DNA of 64,000 nucleotides from Amoebophrya sp. A120 (GCA_905178155.1 CAJINV010000027.1:123697-187696), one strand, 5' to 3'. Counted from the stretch's first letter, positions 3,201-32,577 are shown. A program made the numbers and translations. Notes: generated from the letters alone by a model not told the origin.

Positions 3201-6200
3201 ATTTTTTTGAGTACACAAATCGACTTGTATCGCTGGAAGGCCAAGAGCCGCAGTTGTGGCCACCTCGTTTGCAGATGACAATTTGTCATGCTGTTTTTCC
3301 CACTTCCAGCTGCCTCCTGTCATGCTGAAGTAGGTGCAAGGCCTTCCCACGCCACCCAGATGAACTACAGTCCCCCGCATCTTTTCCCTCCTAGCATGAC
3401 AAAGCTGATTTGTGACCACCAACCTGCATCACAGACTTCCGTTTTGATAAGGGGAGGTTTTTCGTCTTGATACAGCAGAAGAGCAAGCTAGCAGTCCGGC
3501 TCTTCCACCACGACCCCTACTAGCGAGCCCGCCAGCTGCCCCGGCCTCCTGTCTGGAAAATAAAGCGTCGACAGTGGCAGCTTTTGGTGCACCTCCTCCA
3601 CACGGACCACCATGTGGTCTAACTGCGGTGGGACAACAAGCCGCGGAGAGGGACATCAAGACGGGCATGACCACGCGCTCCAGTGACATTTTTACCGGCA
3701 ATATGGAGAGAAAAAAGTTTGTCACAGTCACTAAGTTGCAGGGTTGGCATTACAAATTTTTTTTGCATCACAACTTCTCCTTGCATTGCACAAACACTAG
3801 AAAAATCCCTTATGAAGTGTGGCTGTGATGCATTTTTACGCATGACGGACAATTTTGTCTTGCAAAAGTGCCCATGAGTGATCGTGACGAACTTTTTTCT
3901 TTTGATAGGCAATGAGGCTGCTTCATCGGCCGTGGGAGGTTGTCCACGCAGTCGTCGGGGAGAAGAAGCGCAGGGCGCCGCCCACCACAGCAAGGAAATA
4001 AATAGCCGGGCGGACCAAGAAGCAGCTGCTGCAGCCACGACTAGTACCGCAGCCGCCTGCCCCCGTCCTGTCAACCTCCCTGCTTCTTCCCCTGCTGTTG
4101 CCGCCGGTGACTCGGCTGCGACGCCAGCTCGCAGATCCGGTAGTACAGCTAGCAGCGCCGCCTACAACGGGGGGGGTTCTGGTTCTCAGGTTGCATGTGC
4201 TGGCCTGCGGCCCCCAGTTCCCGGTGGCGAAAATGGAGGAGGTGGCTTTGTCCCGCCCTGCGTCCCCCACGTTTTGTCCGTGCAGCAGCGGCGGTGGCTG
4301 ACTGGGCACTTGAATGTCGCAGCAGCAGGGGGGCTCCAATATGGCCTGGAACCTGATGGCCCAGTGCAGCAGCAGCAACAGCCCCCACGCGAACCACATG
4401 GCCCGGGACCTGATGGCCCAGTGCAGCAGCAGCATATGACAGTGCACAACTCCCCCTCCCCCTCATTTGTATAGCATGAATGGCTATACAAGCATCAGCA
4501 AGAATGCCGGTTTTGCATGACAGTTTTGCACTGGAGTGTAATGCTATTTGGGCTACCGGAACTTGTCATGCAAAAAGTGCCAAGAGGCAACGGGTGGACT
4601 AGGTATTTTGCATGACAAATGAGGGGGAGGGGGGGTTGTGCACTGTCATACAGCAGCCGCAGCCCCCACAAGGTGGGCAAATGGATGAGATTGCTCAGCG
4701 CCCAAATGGAGTTGGCCATGGACCCCCTCGTCTTCTACCAAATGTAAAAATGTCTGGGTCTGAAAACTTGTGATGCTGGGTGGCGTCTCATGATGAGGCT
4801 ACAGATGCTGGCTCAGCATGACAAGTTTCTGAGCTCCTAGCTGTTGCCTATTCTGCATGACAAACTGCGAATCTGCATCACAGAAAAACGGGGGTCTTGG
4901 GTAACGTGCATGACAGATTTAAGAGTCATGCCAGGCAAGCATGACAAACATGAATTCTTCCAGACCCAGACATTTTTATCTTCTACCTGCAAACAAAACC
5001 CTTCCAGGGCCAGGGGCTCTCGCGTCTGTCGGCCGGCCCGCCAACGGGACGCCCATCACGACCCACGGGACGCCCATTTCTGGAGTGGTTCTTCGCGACC
5101 CTCCGGGAGCGGGCGGCCCTGCTTCTGTTGCAACGGTTTCGGCTCCACCTAGCAGACCCGCCCGGCCGCAGGTTTGTGAAGAATTTGACACCGTCTGGGA
5201 CCTCATCCGGAGAAGTCCCGCGGCCCTGGAACACGCCAGCGAGGCTTGTATGGCTTGCTCAGATGTTACAGTCTCAAACGTTCTTCCATACAATAGAGTC
5301 GGTATTTTGTATTGCATGATGAGCATGACAGACTCGCAGAGCGTTTCATTTTCTGCAATACAATTTTTCCTGTGCGGTTTGGGGTTCGAAAACTTGTCAT
5401 GCGCATCAATGCTGGGGGACTAGTTGTAGGTTAAATCATCTGCGCTTGGTGCATCACAGATTTTCAGATTCTATCGTGGCGCTTGAGATTTTTGCAACAC
5501 CTGAGCAGGTTATAGCTTGTCGCGACAGCTTCTACCTGGTGCTGGAAGCCGTGCGGTTTGAGGAAGTTCCGATGTTGTCTGGAGGCACGGAGCAACATGA
5601 TGATCCCAGCGACCAGAAACCTCCCCTCGTTTTCGGGCTTCTTCGGTTTGCTTCAACCCGGTTGCAGGACCACGGAGAGATCGTGTTTCCCGCGGTAAAG
5701 CGCGTGGCGCACAATCTCAAGTTCGCCTCGGCGCGGCTGCGGGACGACAAAAATCTGGTCGTGATCGCCGTCACAGGAGGTGTTGGCGCAATGCTGGAGT
5801 TCGCCTCTGCCCGCCTACGGGGTATCCTGAGTAAAAACGTACCCACACCAGAGTCAGGATGAGGATTTTGCAACACAAACCTAGGAGTTTTGTGAGTCAC
5901 GCATGACAAGCTGCACTTTGCAGTGTAGTGCAGGTTAGCAAGTGCAGCCGCATCACAGATTCATCTGCTCATCCTGTTCACAGCATCACAAATTCCAAAA
6001 CACGATTGGAAATGGCTCTCATGGGGATGCGCATTACAAGTCTTCCTGTCTTTGCAAATCTGCATTACAACTCTGGTGTGGGTACGTTTTTACTCAGGAT
6101 ACGGGGAGATCGCGACGTAGTTCGCTTGGCGATCGACAACGAAGTAGATACAACAAACACCGCTCCTCCCCTATCAAATGCAAGAGTGTCTGGGTCTGGA

Positions 6201-16850: not shown

Positions 16851-19800
16851 ATGAAGTTTTTTCTTATTTTCGTTCTCGCTGCGACAGAATGGGTCGGGGC
16901 CTCGGCCTCCGGGCGGAAAGCGCCGCTCGTCCTGTTTCCGCCATCTCCTGCTGAAGGTAAAGGTAGTGGAAGGCACAGCGCAGGTAGTGGAAGCCGCAGC
17001 GCGAATAGGAGATTGCACAACTCCCCCTCCCCCTCATTTGTATTGCATGAGCGGCAATACAAGCATCAGCCAGAATGCCGGTTTTGCATGACAAATTTGC
17101 ACCGCCGGAGAAGTGTTGTGCTATTTGGGCTACCAGAGCTTGTCATTCAAATAGTGCCGCAAGGCAGCGTCAGCGAATAACGCAGGCACTTTGCATGACA
17201 AATGAGGGGGAGGGGGGTTGTGCACTCTTATATCGAGCCGCAAGCAGAGACAGAGTTCTCGCAGCGCCAGTGTGGCGAGTAGTAGTCGTAGTAGTAGCAG
17301 CAAGTACGAGGAGGGAGTCTATGAAAACGTCAGAATCGAAATGGACAAAATCGAAAAATTTGTGATGCACAAAATCGATGTGGTCAGTTGGAGTCTCAGT
17401 TCCCAACTGGCGCATGACAAATTTCGGGAGCACCCAAATCCAGTCTGTCGTGCTGTTTGGGCAAAGAAGACTGCTCCTGTCGTGTTACTCTGGTGGCAGC
17501 ACATCGCGCACCCCTCAACAGGCTTACAATTGGTCTTATTTGCCTGCTTCCCAATACAGGCCGCCAGTGCCTTACATTTTATGCATCACAAATTTTTCGA
17601 TTTTGTCCATTTCGATCCTGACACATCCATACAGTCGCTTCGCTCGCAGAGACGTTTCGCGAAATCGCGAAGGAAATGGCCTTGGCCATATGCATTGGAA
17701 ATTAATATGTCCTCTGGGTCTCCCGGAAAGATTGGAACTTGTGATGCGTATTTCACGACACACAAACTTTTCATGCATAGGCACCAAAAGTACAAGTGCC
17801 CCACTTCGCGGCATCGAAATAGAGAATTAATGATGCGGATTACGCATAATTTTGCGGAACCGTCTCAAAGCCTGTTAAAAAGAGGCCAGGGCTTCCAGCA
17901 TGCCAGACGTTCCGAGTGAGTCATGGAAAAACAGCATGACAGAAATGAAATCTGCAATCTTCCACACCCCGACTCAGACATACTTATTTGCATTTGATAG
18001 GCCACGACCCCGGACGGCGGGCCCGCCAAAGACCGAAGAACCGTTCTGGTCGCGTTCAGTGACGGAAGCAGTAATAGTGAACAAGATAGCAGCGACGGGA
18101 GCAGTGACAGAAGCCGTGACAGAAGACAGGACCACACTGGTGCGGTCGCGTCGTACGCAGTGTACGCCCAATCGTACGAGATCAAACGATATGCATTGCA
18201 AATATGTTTGGATCTTCTGGAAGGATGCAGCTTGTCATGCTAGATCTGGATCATGCAAGAATTTGTGTTGCACGATTACCAAACGCGGTGCACTTTTGAC
18301 CAAGTCGAGAGGGAGTTTCGCATGTAGGATAGGCATCCATGATACAGATCTCAGAGAACCTGTCCTCGTGCTCGGTCCTGCATTCCAGAGCCCATGGAAA
18401 TGGGCCACCACGTTAAACCTGCATGACAAGTCTCTTCATCTTCCAGACCCAGACATTCTTGCAATCCATAAAAGAGTGCGGGACGATTACAAGCGCAAGC
18501 CTGAGGGCTTGAGCGGGTATGTGCTCGATCTGGAAAGCACGGAGTGCGCCTGCAGGCCCTGTAAGTTCGTCGTTTCGCTGGCTACAAGCAAGGCGGTCAA
18601 TGATGATGCAAGGTTGGGCAGCACGTCCACGTTCGTGACGGCTCAAAAAACTCACTCCCTGGCCGAGCTGCTGACGCGCACCGAAACGGCCCTCGTTGAA
18701 AGTTTCCGCTTCGACAACCCCAGTGAGAAGGTTGCGAGTACGTTGGCGGCCCAGTACCAGCTTGCAAAGCTCTTCCGGGAGATGTTTTTCCAGGATAACC
18801 GCTGGCGGCACGAGGTGCTTTATAACACCAAGCTATCGACCGGGCAGAAGGAGTTTAGTAAGGCGGTGAAAGATTTTCACCCGAAGCTGCTGCTCGACGC
18901 CGGTTTCTCTTCGATGAACATGAAGCAGGCAGATTTCGTTTCCATCCGAGAGTTTTTTCTGCCGTCTCACGTAGACTTTGGCCGCAGCACGACGGACCCC
19001 TCTCGGTCCCGCTCCCGTTCCGCGTCATCAGAATCTGTGCGGAGCAGTGCGCGCGAGACGAAACCCGACCAGGGGCCCTCCACGTCGTACCCGGCGATAT
19101 TCAAACGACGACAGGAGGGAAGCTCGTTGGAGCTCTCGTCCGTGGCCGAGCTCCGGGGAGTGGCGCTTGCGGTCGCAGTCTTCGCTCGTCACGTCCGTGG
19201 TAGGGGGACATCCACGTTGATGGAGGGGCTGCCTCTCGACCACATCGTTTTCGCTTGCGACAACAAGCTGGCGCTCGAAGAAATTCGGTTTGGGTGGCGC
19301 AACGCTGCCAAGCGTTCTTCGGGACCGATGAAGCCCGCCTTCGCCGTGCCCCACGAGTTGGTGCAGCAGGTTGTCGAGCACTTGGCGTTCCTGGCCCAGG
19401 AACACGGCGATGCTTTTTACCGTTTCGCCTGGCAGCGCGCGGGGCACGAGCGAAAGCACCTTAGCTCCGAAGAGAAGTTTTTTTACGCCTCAGCGCAGCG
19501 GGTCGCCGACGCGGGCGCGCGGCTTTTCCGGAAAGCGGTTGAAAGCCCCGAGTGGGCTTTGGCGGTGCCTGAACGGAGCAGAGACAATTTGGGAGTCGCC
19601 AACGCATTCCGAGAAACATTTTTGTGCATGAGCGAGGACCGGCTCCAGACCGGCATCGTCGCCGGCCTGGCTTTTTTCAAACGCAACAGCGGCCAAAAAG
19701 CGATGGGTACTACGAATTTGTTCACGCTGGGAGCAGGGGTGGATCCGGACCCCGTCGCAGCTGCAGAGCTTTGCGTCGGCTCCTGTGTGTCAGGCTCTCG

Positions 19801-22235
19801 TGTGGCGCTCGCCACACTAAGTTCTTTTGGAGACGCATGTCGCGACGGACGGCCGGCGACCTGGTTTCAGGAGGAGTTAGGCAAGCCCGCGACGGCGGCC
19901 GCCTTTCCGCACTCTTTGTCGACGATCCAGAGTGAGGTGGGCGCCCCGTCGTCCTCTGTTGATGTGGGAAACCTCTGCGACGTAGCGGATGCGGAGCCGG
20001 TTTTGCGCAGGAATAGGGGGGACCCTGAAATCACGATCGCACGGGCACGCGACCCGAGGGGGCGATCGGCTACGCGCCCCGGAGGAGCCCCCCGCGCCAC
20101 CGGGTTGCCCAGGCACCGTCTCGGACCGGTGCCGGAAAACGTCCAAACTTGGCCGCTATCAAATGTAAAAATGCCTGGGTCTGGAAACTTGTGATGCTGG
20201 GCGGCGTCTCGTGATGAGCATGAGGCCACAAATGCTGGCTCAGCATGACAAGTTTCTGATTCTGAGCTTCTAGCTTTTGCCTATTCTGCATGACAAACTG
20301 CGGTGCTGCATCACAGAAAATAAATGGAGCTCTTGTAATATAACGTGCATGACAGATTTGTAGAGTTATGCCAGGCAAGCATGACAAACATACATCCTTC
20401 CAGACCCAGACACTTTTGCACTTGATAGCCGCAGGTAGTAGGCTACACGCCACAACCTCCACTGTCCCAGTTCTTAGTACCCGTAGTGTATCCGGTATGG
20501 AGAGAAAAAAGTTTGTCACAGTCACTAACTTGCAGGTTTTGCATGACAAATTTTCTCAGCATCACAAACTTTCCTTGTATTGCAGAAACACTAGGGAAAT
20601 CCGTAATGAAGTCTTGCTGTGATGCATTTTTACGCATGACAAACAATTTTGTATTGCAAGAATGCGCATGAGTGATCGTGACGAACTTTTTTTCTTTGAT
20701 ATCCGGATGGGTCGATGTACACCGGGTTCTTCTGGGATGTATAAAATGTAAAAATGTCTGGGTCTGGAAGAATGCAACTTGTGATGCTGCATCTGGATTC
20801 CAGAAAAATCTGTATTGCATGAGTACCAAAAGGAATGGAATTTTTGCTACGCCGAGGGGGCATTTGTCATGCGGAATAGGCATCAAGAAGCTCTCAAAAA
20901 ATCTGTGATGCTAGGGCACGCATCACAAACATCAGGCCTCATGCAAAACGTGCATGACAAGTTTCAGAATCTTCCAGACCCAGACATTTTTACAGTTGAT
21001 AGGATGGCAAGAGGCACGGCTGGGGTAGGCTGATGTCGCCGGACGGGCGGGTGCAGTACGATGGAGAGTGGTGCGGCGGCAAACGACACGGCTCTGGCGT
21101 GGGCACGTATACGGATGGGTCGAAGTACAACGGGAAGTGGCAAGACGACAAGCTGCACGGCTGGGGTACGCTGATGTCGCCGGACGGGCGGGTGAAGTAC
21201 GCTGGAGAGTGGTCCGGCGGCAAACTACACGGCTCTGGCGTGTACACGTATAAGGATGGGTCGACGTACAACGGGGAGTGGCAGGACGACAAGAGGCACG
21301 GCCACGGCGTGAACGAGTATCCGGATAGGTCGAGGTACAACGGGAAGTGGCAGGACGACAAGAAGCACGGCCAGGGCCTGCACACGTATCCGGATAGGTC
21401 GAGGTACAACGGGAAGTGGCAGGACGACAAGAAGCACGGCCAGGGCCTGCACACGTATCCGGATAGGTCGAGGTACAACGGGAAGTGGCAGGACGACAAG
21501 AAGCACGGCCAGGGCCTGCACACGTATCCGGATGGGTCGACGTACAGTGGCGAGTGGCTGAACGACAAGCGCAGCGGCCAGGGCCTGCACACGTATGCGG
21601 GCGGGACGACGTACAGCGGGGAGTGGCTGAACAACAAGCGCAACGGCCAGGGCCTGTACACGCATGCGGACGGGTCGACGTACAGCGGCGAGTGGCGGGA
21701 CGCCAAGAGGCACGGCCAGGGCGTGAACAAGTATCCGGATGGGTCGACGTACAGTGGCGAGTGGCTGAACGACAAGCGCAGCGGCCAGGGCCTGCACACG
21801 TATGCGGACGGGTCGACGTACAGTGGCGGGTGGCTGAACGACAAGCGCAGCGGCCAGGGCGTGAACGAGTATCCGGATGGGTCGACGTACAACGGGAAGT
21901 GGCGGGACGACAAGAGGCACGGCCACGGCCTGCACACGTATGCGGACGGGTTGACGTACAGCGGGGAGTGGCGGGGCGACAGGAGGTACGGCCAGGGCGT
22001 GAACAAGTATCCGGATGGGGTGACGTACAGCGGGGAGTGGCGGGGCGACAGGAGGTATGGCCAGGGCGTGAACAAGTATCCGGACGGGTCGACGTACAGT
22101 GGCGGGTGGCTGAACGACAAGCGCAGCGGCCAGGGCGTGCACACGTATGCGGGCGGGACGACGTACAGCGGGGAGTGGTTGGACGACCACCGACACGGCC
22201 AGGGCCTGTACACGGAGACGAATGGCCGGACATAA
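16851..22235 (+). CDS. 1159-aa protein: signal peptide + RNase H-like domain + ~18 MORN repeats (7 introners)
   Basis: Spliced length 3480 nt, open. N-term MKFFLIFVLAATEWVGASA; RNase HI-like motifs VAFSDGS, SSVAELRGVALAV, IVFACDNKLAL, FAWQRAGH, QRVADAGAR; MORN repeats YxGEWxxDKRHGQGxxxYPDG. Confidence 0.8.
17006..17232. mobile_element. Introner family G
   Basis: TIR; DR gcgaa/tcgag. Confidence 0.88.
17320..17631. mobile_element. Introner family D
   Basis: TIR; DR gagtc/cagtc. Confidence 0.9.
17689..17999. mobile_element. Introner family A-like, degenerate
   Basis: DR ggcca/ggcca. Confidence 0.85.
18190..18470. mobile_element. Introner family A
   Basis: TIR; DR aacga/aaaga. Confidence 0.88.
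20157..20427. mobile_element. Introner family A
   Basis: TIR; DR gccgc/gccgc. Confidence 0.9.
20496..20701. mobile_element. Introner family F
   Basis: TIR; DR tccgg/tccgg. Confidence 0.9.
20702..22220 (+). repeat. MORN repeat array (69-nt/23-aa units)
   Basis: ORF 21033-22235 is a tandem of 23-aa units, some identical at DNA level; the first unit is split by introner 20740-21001. Confidence 0.95.
20740..21001. mobile_element. Introner family A
   Basis: TIR; DR ggatg/ggatg. Confidence 0.9.
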
Positions 22236-23272: not shown

Positions 23273-24410
23273 CCGCAGCTTCATCTTGCAGGCTTTTCAT
23301 CATTCGTATTTAACATTACCGACTGCCTCCATCGAGCGCGGTTAAAAAAAAGATGCCCAACTGTATTCATGCACTAATACAAACTTTTTGGTCCATGAAA
23401 TCTTCCGACATCACAAATCCAGACATTCAGGAGGGGTATTGGCAACGCATATGCTTAAAAGTCCACACCTGTTCAACGAGTTCAGTTACCTGCCGGACTT
23501 CGTGTTTATTGCGGACTCGTCTCTGCAACACAAAAAATCTTGATCCTCTTGCAACAACGCAAGAAAAGTTCTTGTGTCTAAAGTCCTCGTGGTCACAATT
23601 ACAGATCTGTTTCTGCAACACAAATCTCGATGATTACAAGCCAAAAAAATGACAAGCCATCAAGTTCTCCTCTCTACTGTGTGTCTTTCCGAAAAAATCT
23701 TTTCTGCAGCAGAAATCATGATCCTCTGGCAAAATTGCAAGACACGTTCTTCTGCAAAGCTTGTGCCTGTTGCTGGACGAGCCGTATGTATTTTCTTAAA
23801 ATCGAAGAGAGAAGTTTCTGATTCTGATTCCGAGCTCAGCATGACAAGTTTCTGATTCTGAGCTTCTAGGTTTTGCCTATTCTGCATAACAAACTGCGTT
23901 TCTGCATCACAGAAAAATGGAGCTCTTGTATAACGTGCATGACAGATTTATAAAGTTATGCCAGGCAAGCATGACAAACATACATCCTTCCAGAACTGTA
24001 TTTATGCATTACAGACCCTGTGGTCCATGAAATCTTCCGACATCACAAATCCAGACCCATCCAGGGAGGGTACTGGCAACGCATATGCTTAAAAGTCCAC
24101 AACTGTTCAACGAGTTAAGTTACCTGCCGGACTTCGTGTTTATTGCGGACTCGTCTCTGCATCTGCAACACAAAAAATCTTGATCCTCTTGCAAAAACGC
24201 AAGACAAGTTCTTTTGTCGAAAGACCTCGTGGTCACAAATACAAATCTGTTTCTGCGAACACAAATCTCGATCGATGATCATCGATCGTGCAAAATTTCT
24301 TGAAGCCATCAAGTTTTCCTCTTTACTGTGTCTACTTGCCGAAAAAATCTTGTCTGCAGCAGAAATCATGATCCTCTGGCAAAATTGCAAGACACGTTCT
24401 TCTACAGAGC
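23273..24410 (+). repeat. Tandemly duplicated dispersed repeat with an embedded TIR-less family A fragment (~23845-23994)
   Basis: ~23368-23760 resembles ~23992-24410; the fragment matches ~20238-20404. Confidence 0.8.
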
Positions 24411-25071: not shown

Positions 25072-28000
25072 ATGGTTATTTATCGCTCGATATCTCGGGA
25101 AGAGCTCGGCGAGCATGCGACTCGCCAGGATTGCTGGATTGCGCTTCACGGTTGGGTCCTGAGAGTCGACGCGAAGACGCTTCAGGAGCACCCGGGCGGC
25201 GCGCAGTCCATTCTTCGGTTATGGAAGTGTCACAATCGAAATTGACAAAATCGAAAAACTTGTGATGCATAAAATCGATACCAGTTGGAGCCTCAGTTTG
25301 CAAGCGGCGCATGACATCAAATTTCGGGAGAACCCAAATCCAGTCTGTCATGCTGTTTGGGCAAAGAAGACTGCTCCTGTCATACTACTCTGGCAGCACA
25401 TTGCATACCCCGCCGAAACAGGCTTACAATCGGCCTCATTTATTGCCTGCTCCCCAATACAGGCCTCCAGTGCCCTACGTTTTATGCATCACAAATTTAT
25501 TTTCGACTTTGTCGATTTCGATCCTGACACATCCATCCCGGTTTGCCGGCACGGATTGCACAACCCCGTTCGAGGATGCAGGACACAGTATCCTGAGCAA
25601 AAATGTACCCACCCCAGAGTTGTCATGCAGATTTGCAGCTACAGGAAGATTTGTAATGCGCATACACATGAGAGGCATTTCCAATCAGGTTTTGCGCTTT
25701 GCAATGCTGTCGACAGGATGAGTAGATGGATTTGTGTTGCGGCTGTGCTTGCTAAACTGCACTACAATACCTAGACGAACTTGTCATGCTGGACCCCCAA
25801 AACTTCTCGATTTGTGTTGCGAAATCCTCATCTTGACTCTGGTGTGGGGACGTTTTTACACAGGATACCGAGTGACTTTGCGCGCGACTGGTGCAACCGG
25901 CTCGAAGTGATGGGGCAATTTTTCGATGTGGATGAAAATGAGAAACAGAGCGGGGCAGCTTCTTGTTCTACGAGAAGATCCTTTTTGAAGAGCAACGATG
26001 ATATAATTAGCAATATGGAACAAGAAGAGCAGCCACGGAAGAAGATTCCTGGCGTAGTAGGGCGACACCACGACTTGGAGATGAGCAGTCAGAGATCACC
26101 TACTGTTCCCGAGGACCACCTCCAGGACCACCCGTTGCAAGAAGTAGAAGGCGCAGCACGACATTATGGCGTTCTCAAATGTTACATTCTCAACTGTTAC
26201 ATGATTTGTCATGCAAAACGAGCATCAACGTCCACAAAATGAAGCTACTTCGCATGACAAATTTTGGAAGGGCTAAACGGGATGAGAATCTATGCCGAAT
26301 TTGTAATGCAAAAGTTGCAAGACCCGGCCTTTCCCCGTTGCCATTCTTGCATCACAAATTCATGTAACAGTTGAGAATGTAACAATTGAGAATCCCATAG
26401 AAATCAAGTTCCGGTCCGCATTGCTCGCATGTTTGTGTACCCGATCAAGGCTTGCGCAGGAGTGGAGATCGACCGTGCAGTTATGACCAAGCACGGGGGC
26501 GGGTTTGCGCACGACCGCGAGTACGTTTTCGCGGCCGAGCAAGATGAAGACGAAGAGCAATTTCATAATACGGAAGAACATCAACTTCTGCTCCCGGACG
26601 AGGACGAGAAGACGGAATCAAATACAAATGGTTGTACAAAAAATGCGAAACGAAGATTTTTGAAGCTGCTCGTGCCGTACGATTTGCCTGCACTCGCTTG
26701 GTATCAAATGTAAAAATATCTGGGTCCGGAACAAAGCAACTTGTCATGCTAAATCTGAATCATGTAAAAATCTGTGTTGCATGATTACCAAAAGCGGTCC
26801 GCTTTTGACCTAATCGAGAGGCAGTTTCTCATGGAGGAGAGGCATTGGAAAGGTTTCGCAGAACCTGTCATGCTATGTCCTACATACCAGACCTCATGGG
26901 TTATGGAAAACCTGCATGACAAATCTGGCAATCTTCCAGACCCAAACATTTTTACATTTGATACCTGGATCCAACCGTCTTTGCCCACTTCGAAGGGGAT
27001 GCAGATTGAGCTGCGGAATTATAACAGTAGTGCGGGTCAAGAACATCCTCTGGCGGAAGTAGATGACAGTTTTTTCGTCCCAAGGATCAGCAGTGCAAAG
27101 GATGGAACATCAAAGAGGTACGTCAACATGTACAAGAAGTGCTTGCTGGAGGGGATCGACCAGGGGGATGCGGTGGCAGACCGCGTCACAAAATTTCTCC
27201 ACCACCATCATCCGGAGGTGGTGGAAAACTTAGCTCTACGTCATGGCAAGAACGACCAGGAAGGAAAAAATTCTAACCAGCAGCACAACACGAACACCAG
27301 CAAAATTATCCGGCTGTTGCTGCTGACCGACCGGTCTCTGCTGCATCCAGAGACCGTCCACATATCAAAAGTAAAAATGTCTGGGTCTGGGAACTTGTGA
27401 TGCTGGGTGGCGTCTCATGATGAGGCTACAAATGCTGGCTCAGCATGACAAGTTTCTGAGCTCCTAGGTGTTGCCTATTCTGCATGGCAAACTGCGCTTC
27501 TGCATCACAGAAAAGCGGAGCTCTTGGGTAACGTGCGTGACAGATTTAAGAGTCATGCCAGACAAGCATGACAAACATGAATTCTTCCAGACCCAGACAT
27601 TTTTACAGTTGATACCACACCGGGCTCTACCACCAGCCGCGGGGCGGATCGAACTACACTCCGTTTATGTTTATGCGCGAGCAGACGTTGGCGGCAATCA
27701 ACCGAAAGTTTTTTCCCACTGAGCCGTTGCGGGTCACGATTTTGCGGTTTCGCCCGAACATCGTCTTTCGCGAGGAGGATGTTGAAGCTGAGGTACTAGC
27801 ACGACTATCTCGTGGTTCCCGTCCAAATGGAGTAGAACAATTCAGTTGTCCAACATCGTCTGATTTCTCTTTTTCCGAGGATTCTTGGGAGACGGTCGAG
27901 CTGCGGCACCAGCTATGGATTGTAAAAATGTCTGGGTCTGGAAGGTTGGAACTTGTAATGCTAGCTTTCCATGCCTAGAAAATCTATATTGCATAACCAA

Positions 28001-30478
28001 TAAAAGTCGCAGCCTCTTTTGTCATGCAAAAACTCAGTTTCTCATGCGGATTGCCTATAAGAAAGCGTTTTGGGAAGTTGTCGTGCCGGACTGCATTCGG
28101 AAGTGTTTGCATCATGCACATTTTAGCATCACAAGTTTCCAGACCCAGACATTTTTGCATTTCATACCAGCCGTCGCGCTTTTTGCGGGTGCTGAAGTCC
28201 TGCGGGCGGTGCAGCCACATCTTCGTGAACCCCGCACTTGCCGTCTGCGACGGGGACTTTGTGCAGAAAGAGCTCTGCCGACTGGGCCGCGATGCCCGGG
28301 GGATGCTGGACAAGTTGGAGAGTAAGCTTCATCTGCTAAAGAACAAGTCGAAGATTTTTGCAACAACAGCTATTGGTCGTCGTGGAGACGTCGAGCAAGA
28401 AAACCCGGTCCTCGCAAGAATAAATTCTACCTCGGTACTAGTTGATCCCGTGCTCCCGTGGTTTCGAAGCCACTACCAGAAGTTTTTGGACGCGGGGCGG
28501 ACGACAAAGGTGTTTCTCGGGCTCTGCGGCTCGTTTCACAGTGAAGGAGATTATGCCGATGCCCCCTCCAGAAGAAGTTCTTCTACATCAGACTGCGTTA
28601 ATATTTTCCACGTTGGACAGGAGTGGGTCGCGAACCTGTCGACCACCCGGTCGCTAAACGAGTTCCGCTCCGAGATGCTGCGGCCTTGCCAAGACAACCG
28701 GGCGCTGCTGGAGAAAACGCGTCCCATCGACTTGCTCTGTGCCTACGGACCAGATTTCTTGCAGGTTGTTCCTACACGGCAACAAAACAAAAATTTGAAC
28801 ATTGGTGAAGACGATGAAGCTGCTCCTGCACCAGATCCGGGCGAAGAAGAAGTGGATGAGCCCGCAGCTAGTAGAACTACAACTATATCTTCTCTGCTTG
28901 AAGATGAAGATGTTTTCTTGCCGCAAACGCCGGCTTTCGAACGAAATACACGGCGTCACGTCACGGTGACCGAGGTGGTCGAGCTGTCACGCACGGCGAA
29001 GCGGATAAGGTTCAGCTTCGGAGATCATGTTGCTGGCCCTCGTTCTCCATCTCCAACTACTTGTGCGCCCATACCGCCGCCGGCCGCATTGGGTCTCCTA
29101 TCAAATGTAAAAATGTCTGGGTCTGGAAGATTCCGAGATTTGTCATGCAGTTCTTCCAAGCTCCACCAAGTCTGGAATGCAGGGCATAGCATCAGAGGTT
29201 CTGCAGCCCCTTGCTGATGCCCATTATGCATGAGAAATGCCCTCTGAGCATGGCGAGAAATGGGGACCTTTTGCAAGTCATGCAACACAGATTTTTGTAT
29301 CATACGCAACACGCATCACAAGTTCGCATTCTTCCAGACCCAGACATTTTTACATTTGATATCTCCCCTGCGGCTACCACGTGGCGACTTTCGGCGAGAA
29401 CCCAGCTTTTGCGCGCTCAACGTGGAATAAACAGCCGCAGTCGGCCGCGGAGAAATATGGAAGCGTCAGGTTTGAAATCGTCAAAGTTGAAATAGTTTGT
29501 CATGCATAAAATGCAGCCCCCAAAGTGCCTGTCTTGCAGAGTAGGCAAGTGAGGCAGATTGTAAGCCTGTTGAGGGGTAGAAGCTGAGTTGCTAAAGTAG
29601 CATGACAAAAGGCGTCTTTCTTACCCAAACAGCATGACAAACTGGATTTCGGCTCTACCCAAATTTGTCATGCGCCACTTGAAAACTGGGTCACAACTTT
29701 GATCCATTTTATGCATGACAAATTATTTCAACTTTGTCGATTTCAACTCTGACACATCCATAAGAAACTCACGCCTTTTATCAAAAGGTCCTTTACCCCC
29801 GTCCGGTGCGGAAAAGGGTTTTTCGACCTGGTGGTGAAAATATATCGGATGAAGAACAGCAAAGGGGCAGACGAACAACAGGATGATGAAGAGGGAAATA
29901 TCAATGCCTTCCCCGATGGCGGTCGTCTTACGGGTCATTTCCTGGATCGCTTGGTGGTGAATGACAAAGTCCAGATCGCCGGTCCGTTTGGCCACATCAG
30001 GTACCTGGGCGACGGGAGGTTTCGACTTCTAAGTGGTCTATGTGGTAGTAAACCAGAGGACCACCGCCCCAATATCAGAAAATTTTCGCAAGTGGGGATG
30101 GTCGCTGGCGGCTCCGGGATCACCCCGATGCTGCAGGTCTTGCAGTTTGCGGCAGCGGAAGCCGGACCTCCTCCTTTTCAGGCACACCTGGTGTATGCGA
30201 ACAAAACGGAGGAGGACATACTATGCCGGGAGTGGATAGAGTCAGACCACTGTCGCAAGGTACTGCTGGGAAGAAATACATCACGCGGCAGCAGTAGAAC
30301 GAAGTATGTAATTTCGGCGAAAGGCGAAAGAATCTGCGAAGAAATATTCAAAAACCACTTACCACCCCCTCACGCGGAGACGCTTGTATTGCTGTGCGGC
30401 CCCCCCGGTATGGTAGCGGCAGCGCGGAATTTTCTGCGGAATCTCGGCCACGAAGCGGAGCAAATACACGAATTTTGA
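25072..30478 (+). CDS. 1065-aa fusion: cytochrome b5 + MOSC_N/MOSC (mARC-like) + cytochrome b5 reductase FAD/NAD domains (8 introners)
   Basis: Spliced length 3198 nt, open. b5: DCWIALHG, EHPGG, AGTDCTTPFEDAGHS. MOSC_N: MFVYPIKAC, HDREYVF, DQGDAVADRVTKFL. MOSC: RFRPNIVF, SEDSW, KSCGRC..VNP. Reductase: LGLPCGYHV, RSFTPV, FDLVVKIY, GPFG, VAGGSGITPMLQ, YANKTEEDIL, CGPPGM, terminal F. Confidence 0.9.
25220..25537. mobile_element. Introner family D
   Basis: TIR; DR tcggt/ccggt. Confidence 0.9.
25589..25867. mobile_element. Introner family E
   Basis: TIR; DR cacag/ccgag. Confidence 0.9.
26165..26399. mobile_element. Introner, singleton (TIR TATGG..TTCTCAA.TGTTACATTCTCAACTGTTACATGA)
   Basis: ~40-bp TIR; DR gacat/gaaat. 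Confidence 0.9.
26702..26963. mobile_element. Introner family A
   Basis: TIR; DR cttgg/cctgg. Confidence 0.9.
27363..27614. mobile_element. Introner family A
   Basis: TIR; DR ccaca/ccaca. Confidence 0.9.
27914..28166. mobile_element. Introner family A
   Basis: TIR; DR ccagc/ccagc. Confidence 0.9.
29099..29361. mobile_element. Introner family A
   Basis: Perfect 32-bp TIR; DR tctcc/tctcc. Confidence 0.92.
29456..29762. mobile_element. Introner family D (reverse orientation relative to 11459)
   Basis: TIR; DR agaaa/agaaa. Confidence 0.9.
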
Positions 30479-32577
30479 TAAATGAAGTCTGTTTATGGTG
30501 GAAAAATGGAGCTGCGCGACAGATGCTGAATGATGCTTCAACGATGTAGGATTTATTAAATGTAGTATGAATAGACAAGACAACGATTTATTTTACCTCG
30601 CTTTGATGATGAAAGTTGAAGTAGTTTGTTGTACACAGTTTTTAGCAAGCAGTAGAAGTACTACACCAACTACAGCGCATCCTGGGAACAGTTGACGTAA
30701 CAACCCAAGCAGATGCAGACCCTCTTTTAAGTAGAATCCGACAGATAAAGGTGAAGCAGCGAGGGCCGAAGCTTTTGTAAGCTTACGAGTTTTTGAGCAA
30801 GCCAAGAAGGTCTTTGACGTCCTCCATCTGTTCGTCAAAGGACCACAAAAACCGAGGGATCAAGCGGAGAAAGAGACAAAGAGGCGCCGGAGAGAACTCG
30901 GGGCCAGATAGAGTGAGAGCGTGCCTTTGGGAGGTTGTAAGTATGTCCTCTCGACGTCCGCAGTGACATGACAACAAAAATCTTGTGGTGCGCTTTGTTT
31001 CTTGTACCGCCCTGGCGCTCGCTGCCACCTCTGCGAGGTGAGATCAGTCTCTGCTACGAACAGGTCTATAGACCTGACGGGCACGACCCTTGCCAGATCA
31101 CCACTCTTGCCGATGATACAAGTAGCTGCCTGATCACAAGAAGCGGCTATCATGCTGCAAAATTTCGCAAAGGTCGTGGTGGAAGACGAAAATTATATCC
31201 CAGTGGTTCCACCTCCCACTTGTGGTTTGCGATTTTAGCAGAGTCTTTTCTGCAACACAAATTATCGCAATCCTCTTGCAATAAGATTGCAGGACGTCGA
31301 CAGGTTCTTCTGTTTGGAGTTCGTGCTTGCAGAGTCGTTTCTGCAACAGAAATGTTGATCCTCTTGCAACTAATGCAAGAAGACGAGGTCTCTTCTTTGC
31401 GGACCCGCTTCTGCAGCACCAACGTCGATGTTACAAATCCTAACCTGTAACACGTGTTGAAAAATGAAGAGTGGGTGGCAACAGCACTCGAACGATATAT
31501 CAAAAATCTATTTTACTGACGCTTCATTCCTTCGACATCCAGAACGAAACGGAGAAAATAAAATGAAAAGCAGATCGTTTGCTCCAAATGCGATGGCAGA
31601 CTAGTAGGAATGATCGTAGGGTGACGATGTGGATCATAATTCATTGCACGACCCTCGGTTTGATTTGCAGCTTTTGTTTTTTGACTTTGTCTCAGTACAA
31701 CTTCTGCACATGGATGAAAAAAAAAATGCAAATGTCGCAGCATGAGCTCGCGGACTTGTAGTTGTATCTGACTTTCTGCAGAGGAGCCGATGAGGATCTA
31801 GATGATCTAAAGAAAACAAAAATCTGGATATCAAATCGCGGTCAATTTAATTACCATCGACATGAATGAACAAAGGAAGTAGAAGAAGTTCCTGTCGGTT
31901 CTATCTAAATATGGTTCGTGTTCTTGTCCTTGTCGTCCTCCTATTGTCATTTACCACGCCGGCTTTTTCGCAAAAATGTCTCTCTTCGCAGGACAAAGGA
32001 AATAAACTTAGTCCATCCGTCAACAGTACGAGTAGCGAGCTTGATCATCTTGTCCTTCGTGTTGACATAGTAGACAGAGGTCATTCATTGTATCTATGAC
32101 AAAAACTTCTTGCAGTATCAGAAATTGTAGTAAGCAGCGCGTATGACATTGTAGTATATCACTCACCACATAATTTTTCTGTTTTGTATAGCGAAAAATA
32201 AGTATTTCGAGCGACATTTTATTTAAACCTCAGACGCATTCTTATGACAAGAAAGAATTGAGACGTTGTTTTGCTTCTATTTAGTGGTAAGCTCCGGGTT
32301 CTTCGAAGTACCGATAGGCTGGGCCACATCGCACACCAGTCATTTTAACATTTCTCCGTGTAGACCTGGACGTGGACGACGTCCACAGCTTTTGCTTGTA
32401 GCATTAGTTTTGTTTGATAAACCAGGCGTCGCGAGCCGGTGTTGAAAAGATTTCGAACACAAAATAGAAAAGTAGGTTTAACCCGTATGATACTTTCCTC
32501 TTCCATATACTATAGTACCATTTTTACAACTTTGACTTGACAAAAACCAATTTGTTTCAATTTGCACGACGAAGAAA

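Follow-up and report, generated by a model that had tools for sequence, protein, structure and literature searches.

A one-chain cytochrome b5-MOSC-cytochrome b5 reductase protein encoded across eight introners in Amoebophrya sp. A120

Cytochrome b5 (b5) and cytochrome b5 reductase (b5R) form the donor pair for all eukaryotic amidoxime reducing components (ARCs; mARC for the mitochondrial type) (PMC10637980). According to the accessible text of the same 2023 review, single-chain MOSC-flavin-ferredoxin proteins occur in Vibrionales, and no b5 fusion is mentioned there. For foraminifera, Gomaa et al. (2021; PMC8153729) reported a transcript with the domain order Cyt-b5, MOSC_N, MOSC, FAD, and NAD, which was proposed to encode a nitrate reductase (hereafter pNR, putative nitrate reductase), with the biochemistry deferred. 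In the available part of a 2022 follow-up, the foraminiferal pNR is cited merely as an alternative suggestion (PMC9231491). Here we describe a gene of this organization in a 64,000-nucleotide stretch of the genome of the marine algal parasite Amoebophrya sp. A120 (GCA_905178155.1 CAJINV010000027.1:123697-187696; hereafter the window). The gene spans 25072..30478 on the plus strand of the window and has nine exons that encode a 1065-aa protein with Cyt-b5, MOSC_N, MOSC, FAD, and NAD(P) domains, as supported by the spliced frame, spliced contigs, and identity to a public protein. An earlier sequence-only reading of the window knew of no description of this architecture, a view overtaken by the foraminiferal report, in which the same order had already been published for a putative enzyme. 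For Amoebophrya or other alveolates, no published description of a b5-MOSC-b5R fusion was found in a literature search that left subscription journals mostly uncovered, and two other Amoebophrya genome papers gave no hits.

A scan for terminal inverted repeats (TIRs) found eight TIR-bounded elements within 25072-30478, with TAT...ATA-type ends that are complementary at 19-24 of 24 positions. The 5-nt direct repeats flanking these elements are identical at all five positions in four cases, at four positions in three, and at three positions in one. Excision of the eight introners, each with one repeat copy, leaves 3198 nt that encode 1065 aa plus a stop codon, and leaving any single intron in place introduces a premature stop at aa 58-847. 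An open frame alone sets intron lengths only modulo 3; when 3, 4, or 5 extra bases were excised per intron, the frame remained open in 6 of the 6561 combinations, the other five being compensating shifts near the two short exons. A GT-AG reading is impossible for all eight introns at each of the six cut positions. The spliced translation agrees letter for letter with NCBI entry CAD7974165.1 (P0001 below), an "unnamed protein product" of Amoebophrya sp. A120. The gene had been described as hidden, and its b5 domain as invisible in the track of open reading frames. In fact, it is present in the public annotation, merely unnamed, and exon 1 alone clears the Cyt-b5 cut-off.

Exons 1-5 lie at 25072-25219, 25543-25588, 25873-26164, 26405-26701, and 26969-27362, and exons 6-9 at 27620-27913, 28172-29098, 29367-29455, and 29768-30478, all on the plus strand, with cuts that can slide inside the 5-nt repeats. 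Contigs of run X1 (Logan), a probable RNA run by the tool's guess, omit all eight introns. The skips amount to 323 nt at introner 1 (25220..25542; element 25220-25537, 318 + 5 nt, repeats 4/5 alike), 284 nt at introner 2 (25589..25872; element 25589-25867, 279 + 5 nt, repeats 3/5 alike), 240 nt at introner 3 (26165..26404; element 26165-26399, 235 + 5 nt), 267 nt at introner 4 (26702..26968; element 26702-26963, 262 + 5 nt), 257 nt at introner 5 (27363..27619; element 27363-27614, 252 + 5 nt), 258 nt at introner 6 (27914..28171; element 27914-28166, 253 + 5 nt), 268 nt at introner 7 (29099..29366; element 29099-29361, 263 + 5 nt), and 312 nt at introner 8 (29456..29767; element 29456-29762, 307 + 5 nt). 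In the listed exon pieces, these contigs and the genomic exons have no differing letters. It is unlikely that X1 represents DNA that lacks all eight elements and yet shows no differing letter in the listed exon pieces, when four of the repeats have already diverged. Frame, protein identity, and X1 joints therefore bear out the predicted removal of eight introners to give a single 1065-aa reading frame. Three raw RNA runs with the same species label (X9-X11) placed 118, 7, and 2 reads, of which 114, 7, and 2 were placed only partly; nearly all are partial matches to introner repeats without exon coverage, and they are uninformative on splicing. The likely 3' untranslated region occupies 30479..30749 on the plus strand, as a spliced contig extends to 30749, although a contig end does not set the transcript end.

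Two spliced X1 contigs cover the gene, the first taking in the b5 exons and all that follows through exon 6, the second running from exon 7 past the stop codon. They meet at intron 6, where the short side is 30 letters, and no single listed contig covers the whole gene. Together with the guessed RNA nature of X1, this gap leaves a little room for an artifact in which gene prediction fused genes or transcripts for b5, ARC, and the reductase that are in reality separate. Such an artifact is nonetheless extremely improbable, given that b5, MOSC_N, and part of MOSC lie on one contig and everything from MOSC to the stop on the other, that exon 7 links MOSC to the FAD domain with neither an intron nor a stop codon, and that the same fusion recurs in six distinct full-length proteins (see below).

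In introns 1-4 (25220-26968), the flanking repeats are mismatched, and the X1 contigs bear the letters of the upstream copy in all four. This places the cut no earlier than the mismatch, with the downstream copy drifting as part of the intron. Such retention of the upstream copy touches on the unsolved mechanism of introner splicing. It also bears on the protein: the codon of His64 hinges on the cut of intron 2, and the RNA joint from 25586 to 25871 retains CAC, so that this second haem ligand is preserved. Introner 2 forms a long hairpin (z -4.0). Compared with the introner elements of Amoebophrya as given in the accessible text of Farhat et al. (2021; PMC7789003), the eight elements share TIRs, 3-5-nt direct repeats, non-canonical ends, and removal from RNA; no difference was found, and they are ordinary members. 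The 64-kb window as a whole holds about 55 elements that have TIRs and 5-nt direct repeats; these belong to several families and lie in both orientations. Perfect 5-nt repeats flank 44 of the 55 elements kept, compared with 3 of 1320 control offsets, a contrast that is only indicative because the selection favored matches.

The protein opens with a cytochrome b5 haem domain (aa 8-82, exons 1-3; 25093..25924, plus strand) that matches Pfam PF00173 at 53.9 bits. Its axial ligands, His40 in HPGG (25189-25191) and His64 in AGHS (25584-25586), are both invariant in 5/5 family members. A low-complexity linker follows (linker 1, aa 83-164; 25925..26410, plus strand), which is predicted to be disordered (pLDDT < 50), varies in length among relatives, and contains no invariant columns. 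The MOSC_N beta-barrel (aa 165-380; 26411..27325, plus strand) matches PF03476 at 33.4 bits (cut-off 25) and carries lineage-specific insertions in addition to the motifs YPIKAC (Lys177), DRE (Arg200), and GIDQG. The MOSC domain (aa 403-645; 27649..28635, plus strand) is supported by hhalign, by comparison of the predicted model with the human mARC1 structure 6fw2, and by column counts. It contains Asn404 (27652-27654), the RFRPN motif with Phe436 (27748-27750), SEDSW, Cys501, Cys504 (28210-28212; the predicted Mo ligand, in CGRC), Arg530, a helical insertion of about 65 aa, and Cys609 (28525-28527). Next come a family-specific post-MOSC helical segment (aa 646-685) and an acidic linker 2 (together 28636..28953, plus strand), and then the cytochrome b5 reductase module (aa ~750-1065; 28954..30478, plus strand), which matches PF00970, PF00175, and human CYB5R3 (E 3.6e-28; Z 28.7) and carries the motifs RSFT, FPDGGRLT, GPFG, GGSGITPM, and CGPPGM. 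Both axial His residues, RFRPN, and the CxRC motif were found where they had been predicted. For the reductase, the earlier claim of full FAD and NAD domains holds in that both Pfam families are matched above cut-off (FAD_binding_6 at 26.5 and NAD_binding_1 at 58.8 bits), but the FAD_binding_6 match spans only profile positions 49-99. NCBIfam returned reductase matches only, all below threshold.

The identity of the MOSC part was assessed by profile and structure comparison. Against a red-algal-type ARC, hhalign gave a probability of 99.6% (E 1.2e-23), and in Atlas, 28 of 30 matches for the corresponding region of P0005, an environmental relative, carry MOSC_N plus MOSC at 0.92. The predicted model (pLDDT 73.5, pTM 0.56) aligns over aa 162-646 with human mARC1 (6fw2, chain 52-336) at Z 27.4 and rmsd 2.6 for 280 residues. 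The Foldseek list consisted of reductases only, and the mARC1 match came from VIA re-alignment. A model from five sequences alone was unusable (pLDDT 42). In a second alignment, the last ~45 aa of stand-alone MOSC rows had been placed wrongly, in the reductase region, and the model still matched mARC1 to the C-terminus. Profile comparison, structure match, and spliced contigs support the view that the three parts of the mARC electron chain, including a true mARC fold, are joined in one polypeptide. In Pfam scans of P0001, no sulfite-oxidase-type domain (PF00174, PF03404) was found at E up to 1, and no 2Fe-2S ferredoxin (Fer2) was matched. Likewise, no 19-residue window exceeds a hydropathy of 1.24, so the protein lacks an N-terminal membrane anchor and is not of the mitochondrial mARC type. 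For A120, a soluble protein in the cytosol is likely. In the A25 homolog (P0003), a hydrophobic segment or hairpin that is missing in A120 lies between b5 and MOSC_N (aa ~150-200); it may be the membrane tail of an ancestral b5.

Among 120 long relatives of the reductase exon listed, MOSC_N was found in four, namely the proteins of A120, AT5.2, and A25 and one unnamed protein. Further searches added P0121 (truncated where the FAD domain begins), P0267/P0273, P0294, and fragments. The fusion is present in six distinct full-length proteins: those of A120 (P0001), AT5.2 (P0002), and A25 (P0003), and three unnamed environmental proteins with the same architecture (P0005, P0267, and P0294). This family size is a lower bound, because a word search using P0005 missed the members P0001 and P0002. 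Domain identity and order are conserved over the three Amoebophrya strains and the environmental relatives, as are both haem His residues, the motifs for flavin and for pyridine nucleotide, and, where the Mo ligand is expected, the Cys. At about 40% overall identity, five members share 33 invariant columns in b5, 41 in MOSC_N, and 46 in MOSC, and none in either linker, indicating that constraint acts on the MOSC part as it does on the other domains. In quick trees, the family MOSC parts form one group (support 100), and the family reductases also form one group (support 99) outside the nitrate-reductase rows; with their open forks, these trees do not show where the MOSC and reductase modules came from. 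Narrow pattern scans found no family members in 77 JGI metagenome loci or 15 prokaryotic genome loci, and no relatives among 57 viral candidates. The AT5.2 protein carries about 650 extra residues (aa 874-1520) that open with a GxGxxG FAD-binding motif and have a weak DAO match; this extension reflects either yet another fusion or read-through in the gene model. Among the other proteins compared, P0004 (905 aa) is a fusion of a cytochrome P450 with a FAD/NAD module of the cytochrome b5 reductase type, which is unusual as the layout of a self-sufficient P450. In addition, P0292/P0257 of Perkinsus olseni are tandem double ARCs with Tyr at the position of human Asp209 in the second copy.

For the MOSC active site, human numbering was tied to Cys273 via 6fw2 alignments. 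The outside comparison comprised 47 MOSC rows, a biased sample because 38 of them were picked by a YPIKAC-type pattern. Among the positions tallied, nine are invariant both in all 47 outside rows and in the family (K177, D199, R200, R437, N439, E479, C501, R503, and C504). The Lys/Arg/Arg set is reported to clamp the cofactor phosphate. The candidate Mo ligand C504 (human C273, crARC C252) is present in 8/8 family rows, and F436 (crARC F210) is Phe in four and Tyr in four of the eight. The Amoebophrya protein also keeps the positions of human mARC1 Cys273, Phe237, Arg238, and Asn240. In the algal enzyme crARC, F210 and C252 are required for binding of the molybdenum cofactor (Moco), and the D182A variant keeps Moco and loses N-hydroxy reduction (PMC5372681, accessible text). 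With the Moco-essential positions kept and the position of human Asp209 changed, the pattern fits an enzyme that binds the cofactor but is altered on its substrate side.

The reductase module has the RxxT, GGxGITP, and CGP motifs of FNR-type FAD/NAD domains. At the site of the NADH-specifying Asp239, P0001 has Ser by either alignment, and Ser is also found in P0294 when aligned with maize nitrate reductase. A Ser here agrees with reductases of the NADPH type. Substitutions at this site switch the preference between NADH and NADPH, as reported for D239T in rat b5R and S920D in Neurospora nitrate reductase (PMC5817062, in part). The electron donor is therefore likely NADPH or either nucleotide, which makes the NADH assumed in the sequence-only reading doubtful.

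The source of the cofactor is less straightforward. In the accessible supplement of Farhat et al. (2021; PMC7789003), the six genes considered for molybdopterin synthesis are marked ND, taken here as "not detected", in both A25 and A120, and haem synthesis is given as absent or incomplete. Moco salvage from the host would follow from this lack of detected synthesis. There is precedent, in that Haemonchus contortus depends on dietary Moco (PMC7619442) and Moco salvage has also been reported for C. elegans (PMC7849362), as far as the accessible parts of these papers go. Alternatively, the same enzyme may use Moco made by the parasite itself, with biosynthesis genes that were overlooked because they are divergent and split by non-canonical introns. 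More than 60% of the introns in Amoebophrya are non-canonical and its proteins evolve fast (PMC7789003); Mo use is lost in most alveolates, but Perkinsea retain it (PMC6147048). Labels of Moco clients also occur in the same organism: in the available Table_5 of Farhat et al. (2018; PMC6176090), KEGG orthology (KO) labels include sulfite oxidase (two rows in A120 and one in A25), xanthine dehydrogenase (four rows in A120), and Moco sulfurtransferase (one row in each strain, early infection). These labels are automatic, given without gene ids, and limited to regulated genes. The same table has no rows for gephyrin, pyranopterin, or nitrate reductase and only two "molybd" rows, and the directed six-gene search was negative in both strains with RNA-supported gene models. 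Parasite-made Moco is thus quite unlikely. Within the window, Pfam scans of 62 of the 109 long open reading frames found no Moco-related neighbor.

Taking these lines together, we propose that the protein may be a self-sufficient, soluble reductase that abstracts oxygen through an NAD(P)H-FAD-haem-Mo chain, with an altered substrate preference and a host-derived cofactor, a reading to which we assign a probability of roughly 0.5. Electrons would pass from NAD(P)H to FAD, haem, and finally Moco within one chain. The N-terminal b5, on its flexible tether of about 80 aa, would ferry electrons one at a time from the reductase at the C-terminus to the Mo center. By analogy with mARC, Mo(IV) would then take oxygen from a small substrate of the N-O or peroxide type, and the role would most plausibly be the detoxification of oxidized compounds encountered inside the host cell. 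Moco would be salvaged from the nitrate-assimilating dinoflagellate host, as haem must be.

Several observations weigh against this reading. Pfam MOSC (PF03473) scores 14.8 bits in exon 6 against a cut-off of 22.7, finds no match in the whole P0001, and remains below cut-off in 7/8 scanned family proteins, passing only in the fragment P0124. The predicted MOSC match by profile therefore stands with hhalign and fails with Pfam. The alignment behind the structure model included ARC relatives, so the mARC1 match is not fully independent, and a pTM of 0.56 does not fix the domain arrangement. The stem of the family MOSC group is long (1.67 changes per column). At the position of crARC D182 and human D209, N404 is Asn in all 7 family rows that cover it, compared with Asp in 36/47 outside rows. 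Also altered in all members are the Phe two residues before this position and the Thr-Thr after the Cys; the EP motif is altered in the family as well. Moreover, R530, although invariant in 8/8, lies one residue off crARC R276 and human R298, at the start of the family insertion. For the cofactor, the KO labels could stem from b5, Fe-S, or MOSC sub-domains, and "not detected" may be a miss in a fast-evolving, introner-riddled genome.

Asn404 makes plain reduction of 6-hydroxylaminopurine (HAP) or amidoximes by the Amoebophrya protein doubtful, and with it the detoxification of N-hydroxy compounds and HAP suggested earlier, as the Asp essential in crARC is Asn here. At the position of human Tyr317, which is Asn in 31/47 and Tyr in 10/47 outside rows, every family member has Cys609. 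Judging from the residues alone, the Asp-to-Asn and Tyr/Asn-to-Cys changes by the cofactor suggest a shifted substrate range rather than decay. Another explanation is that the MOSC domain was repurposed without Moco, either to hold another pterin, metal, or ligand via Cys501, Cys504, and Cys609 or to serve as a scaffold, with b5 and b5R feeding outside acceptors as in flavohaem reductases of the NCB5OR type. The loss of the catalytic Asp, the changes of several cofactor-side residues in every member, the new invariant Cys609, the long MOSC stem, the Pfam result, and the undetected molybdopterin synthesis are all in its favor. However, all nine positions that are invariant in the 47 outside MOSC proteins are kept, including the Lys/Arg/Arg set and the Mo-ligating Cys, and other Moco-client labels occur in the same organism, so that we consider a Moco-free protein unlikely.

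With Moco as the favored cofactor, a strongly conserved Moco-type enzyme without detected Moco synthesis shows that something is missing from the published account of metabolism in a parasite that controls blooms, and it predicts host cofactor salvage, which has so far been shown in nematodes. A bolder version, which we hold only tentatively, is that Amoebophrya and its relatives, being unable to produce molybdopterin, take intact Moco from the consumed alga for a one-chain enzyme whose rebuilt active site, with Asn replacing the catalytic Asp and an added Cys near the pterin, performs chemistry new to mARC. If true, this would be cofactor theft by an intracellular protist, and the family would be a second one with the pNR architecture, either independently arisen or horizontally shared. 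Regardless of substrate, a natural soluble three-in-one mARC electron chain would make the b5-to-Mo transfer step easier to study; searches of the PDB found only single-component structures for this chain.

The Amoebophrya fusion also bears on the foraminiferal pNR proposal. The identical domain order invites the explanation that this protein is a nitrate reductase or a nitrite reductase that forms nitric oxide (NO), as proposed for pNR, and that in the parasite it might draw on nitrate or nitrite of the host or produce NO. When driven by the haem-FAD domains of a nitrate reductase, ARC yields NO from nitrite (PMC10637980), and the loss of an acidic residue at an open active site could favor an anion. 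Nevertheless, the role of pNR is itself only putative in the available account, no sulfite-oxidase-fold domain is present, and the family reductase is not within the nitrate-reductase rows of the tree. In addition, the parasite is aerobic, with no nitrate reductase label in the regulated-gene table. We therefore regard this explanation as improbable. That this architecture also occurs in a parasite which is aerobic and apparently does not denitrify shows that nitrate respiration does not follow from domain order alone.

Other features were noted elsewhere in the window. At 17206-22232 (plus strand), removal of six elements gives a frame of 1118 codons that ends with 12 MORN repeats, and a DUF4116 repeat match lies at 5329-5859 (plus strand). 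Upstream of the gene, 23380-24410 holds a tandem duplication of about 640 bp, and 23856-23950 has 89% identity to the interior of introner 5 without its ends.

Compared with the described systems, the protein shares with eukaryotic mARC/ARC (human mARC1 with CYB5B and CYB5R3; crARC with Cyt b5-1 and Cyt b5-R) the same three parts and the MOSC_N plus MOSC fold. It differs in that the chain is fused and has no N-terminal anchor, Asp209 is replaced by Asn and Tyr317 by Cys, an insertion of about 65 aa and a post-MOSC segment are added, and the reductase is without the NADH-specifying Asp. The protein would thus be mARC-like in its working, but falls outside a strictly defined mARC because it lacks the catalytic Asp, separate partners, and an anchor. 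Single-chain YcbX proteins of Vibrionales (MOSC, FAD/NAD(P), 2Fe-2S) likewise hold a whole electron chain and a Mo domain (PMC10637980, accessible text), and among Atlas clusters they come closest to the whole protein, with a score of 0.80 that is no more than a lead; however, these are bacterial and have a C-terminal ferredoxin where the Amoebophrya protein has an N-terminal b5 haem. Eukaryotic assimilatory nitrate reductase also combines a Mo domain, b5, and b5R in one chain, but with the order Mo-b5-FAD and with sulfite-oxidase-fold Mo and dimerization domains, neither of which is found here. The foraminiferal pNR of Nonionella stella and Bolivina argentea has the identical domain order in one chain (PMC8153729), whereas the organisms that carry it are anoxia-tolerant denitrifiers of another supergroup and Amoebophrya is an aerobic intracellular parasite. 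Furthermore, pNR was called, in the accessible text, by a Pfam MOSC match, which the Amoebophrya family mostly fails; among 266 proteins compared, MOSC matches were limited to family members and one Perkinsus protein, and no foraminiferal pNR turned up among the matches. The architecture is therefore already known from foraminifera, and the Amoebophrya lineage is a distinct variant of it, in which the new elements are Asn404 alongside a kept Mo-ligand Cys, Ser at the NADH-specifying Asp site, and the presence of such an enzyme despite the reported lack of molybdopterin synthesis.

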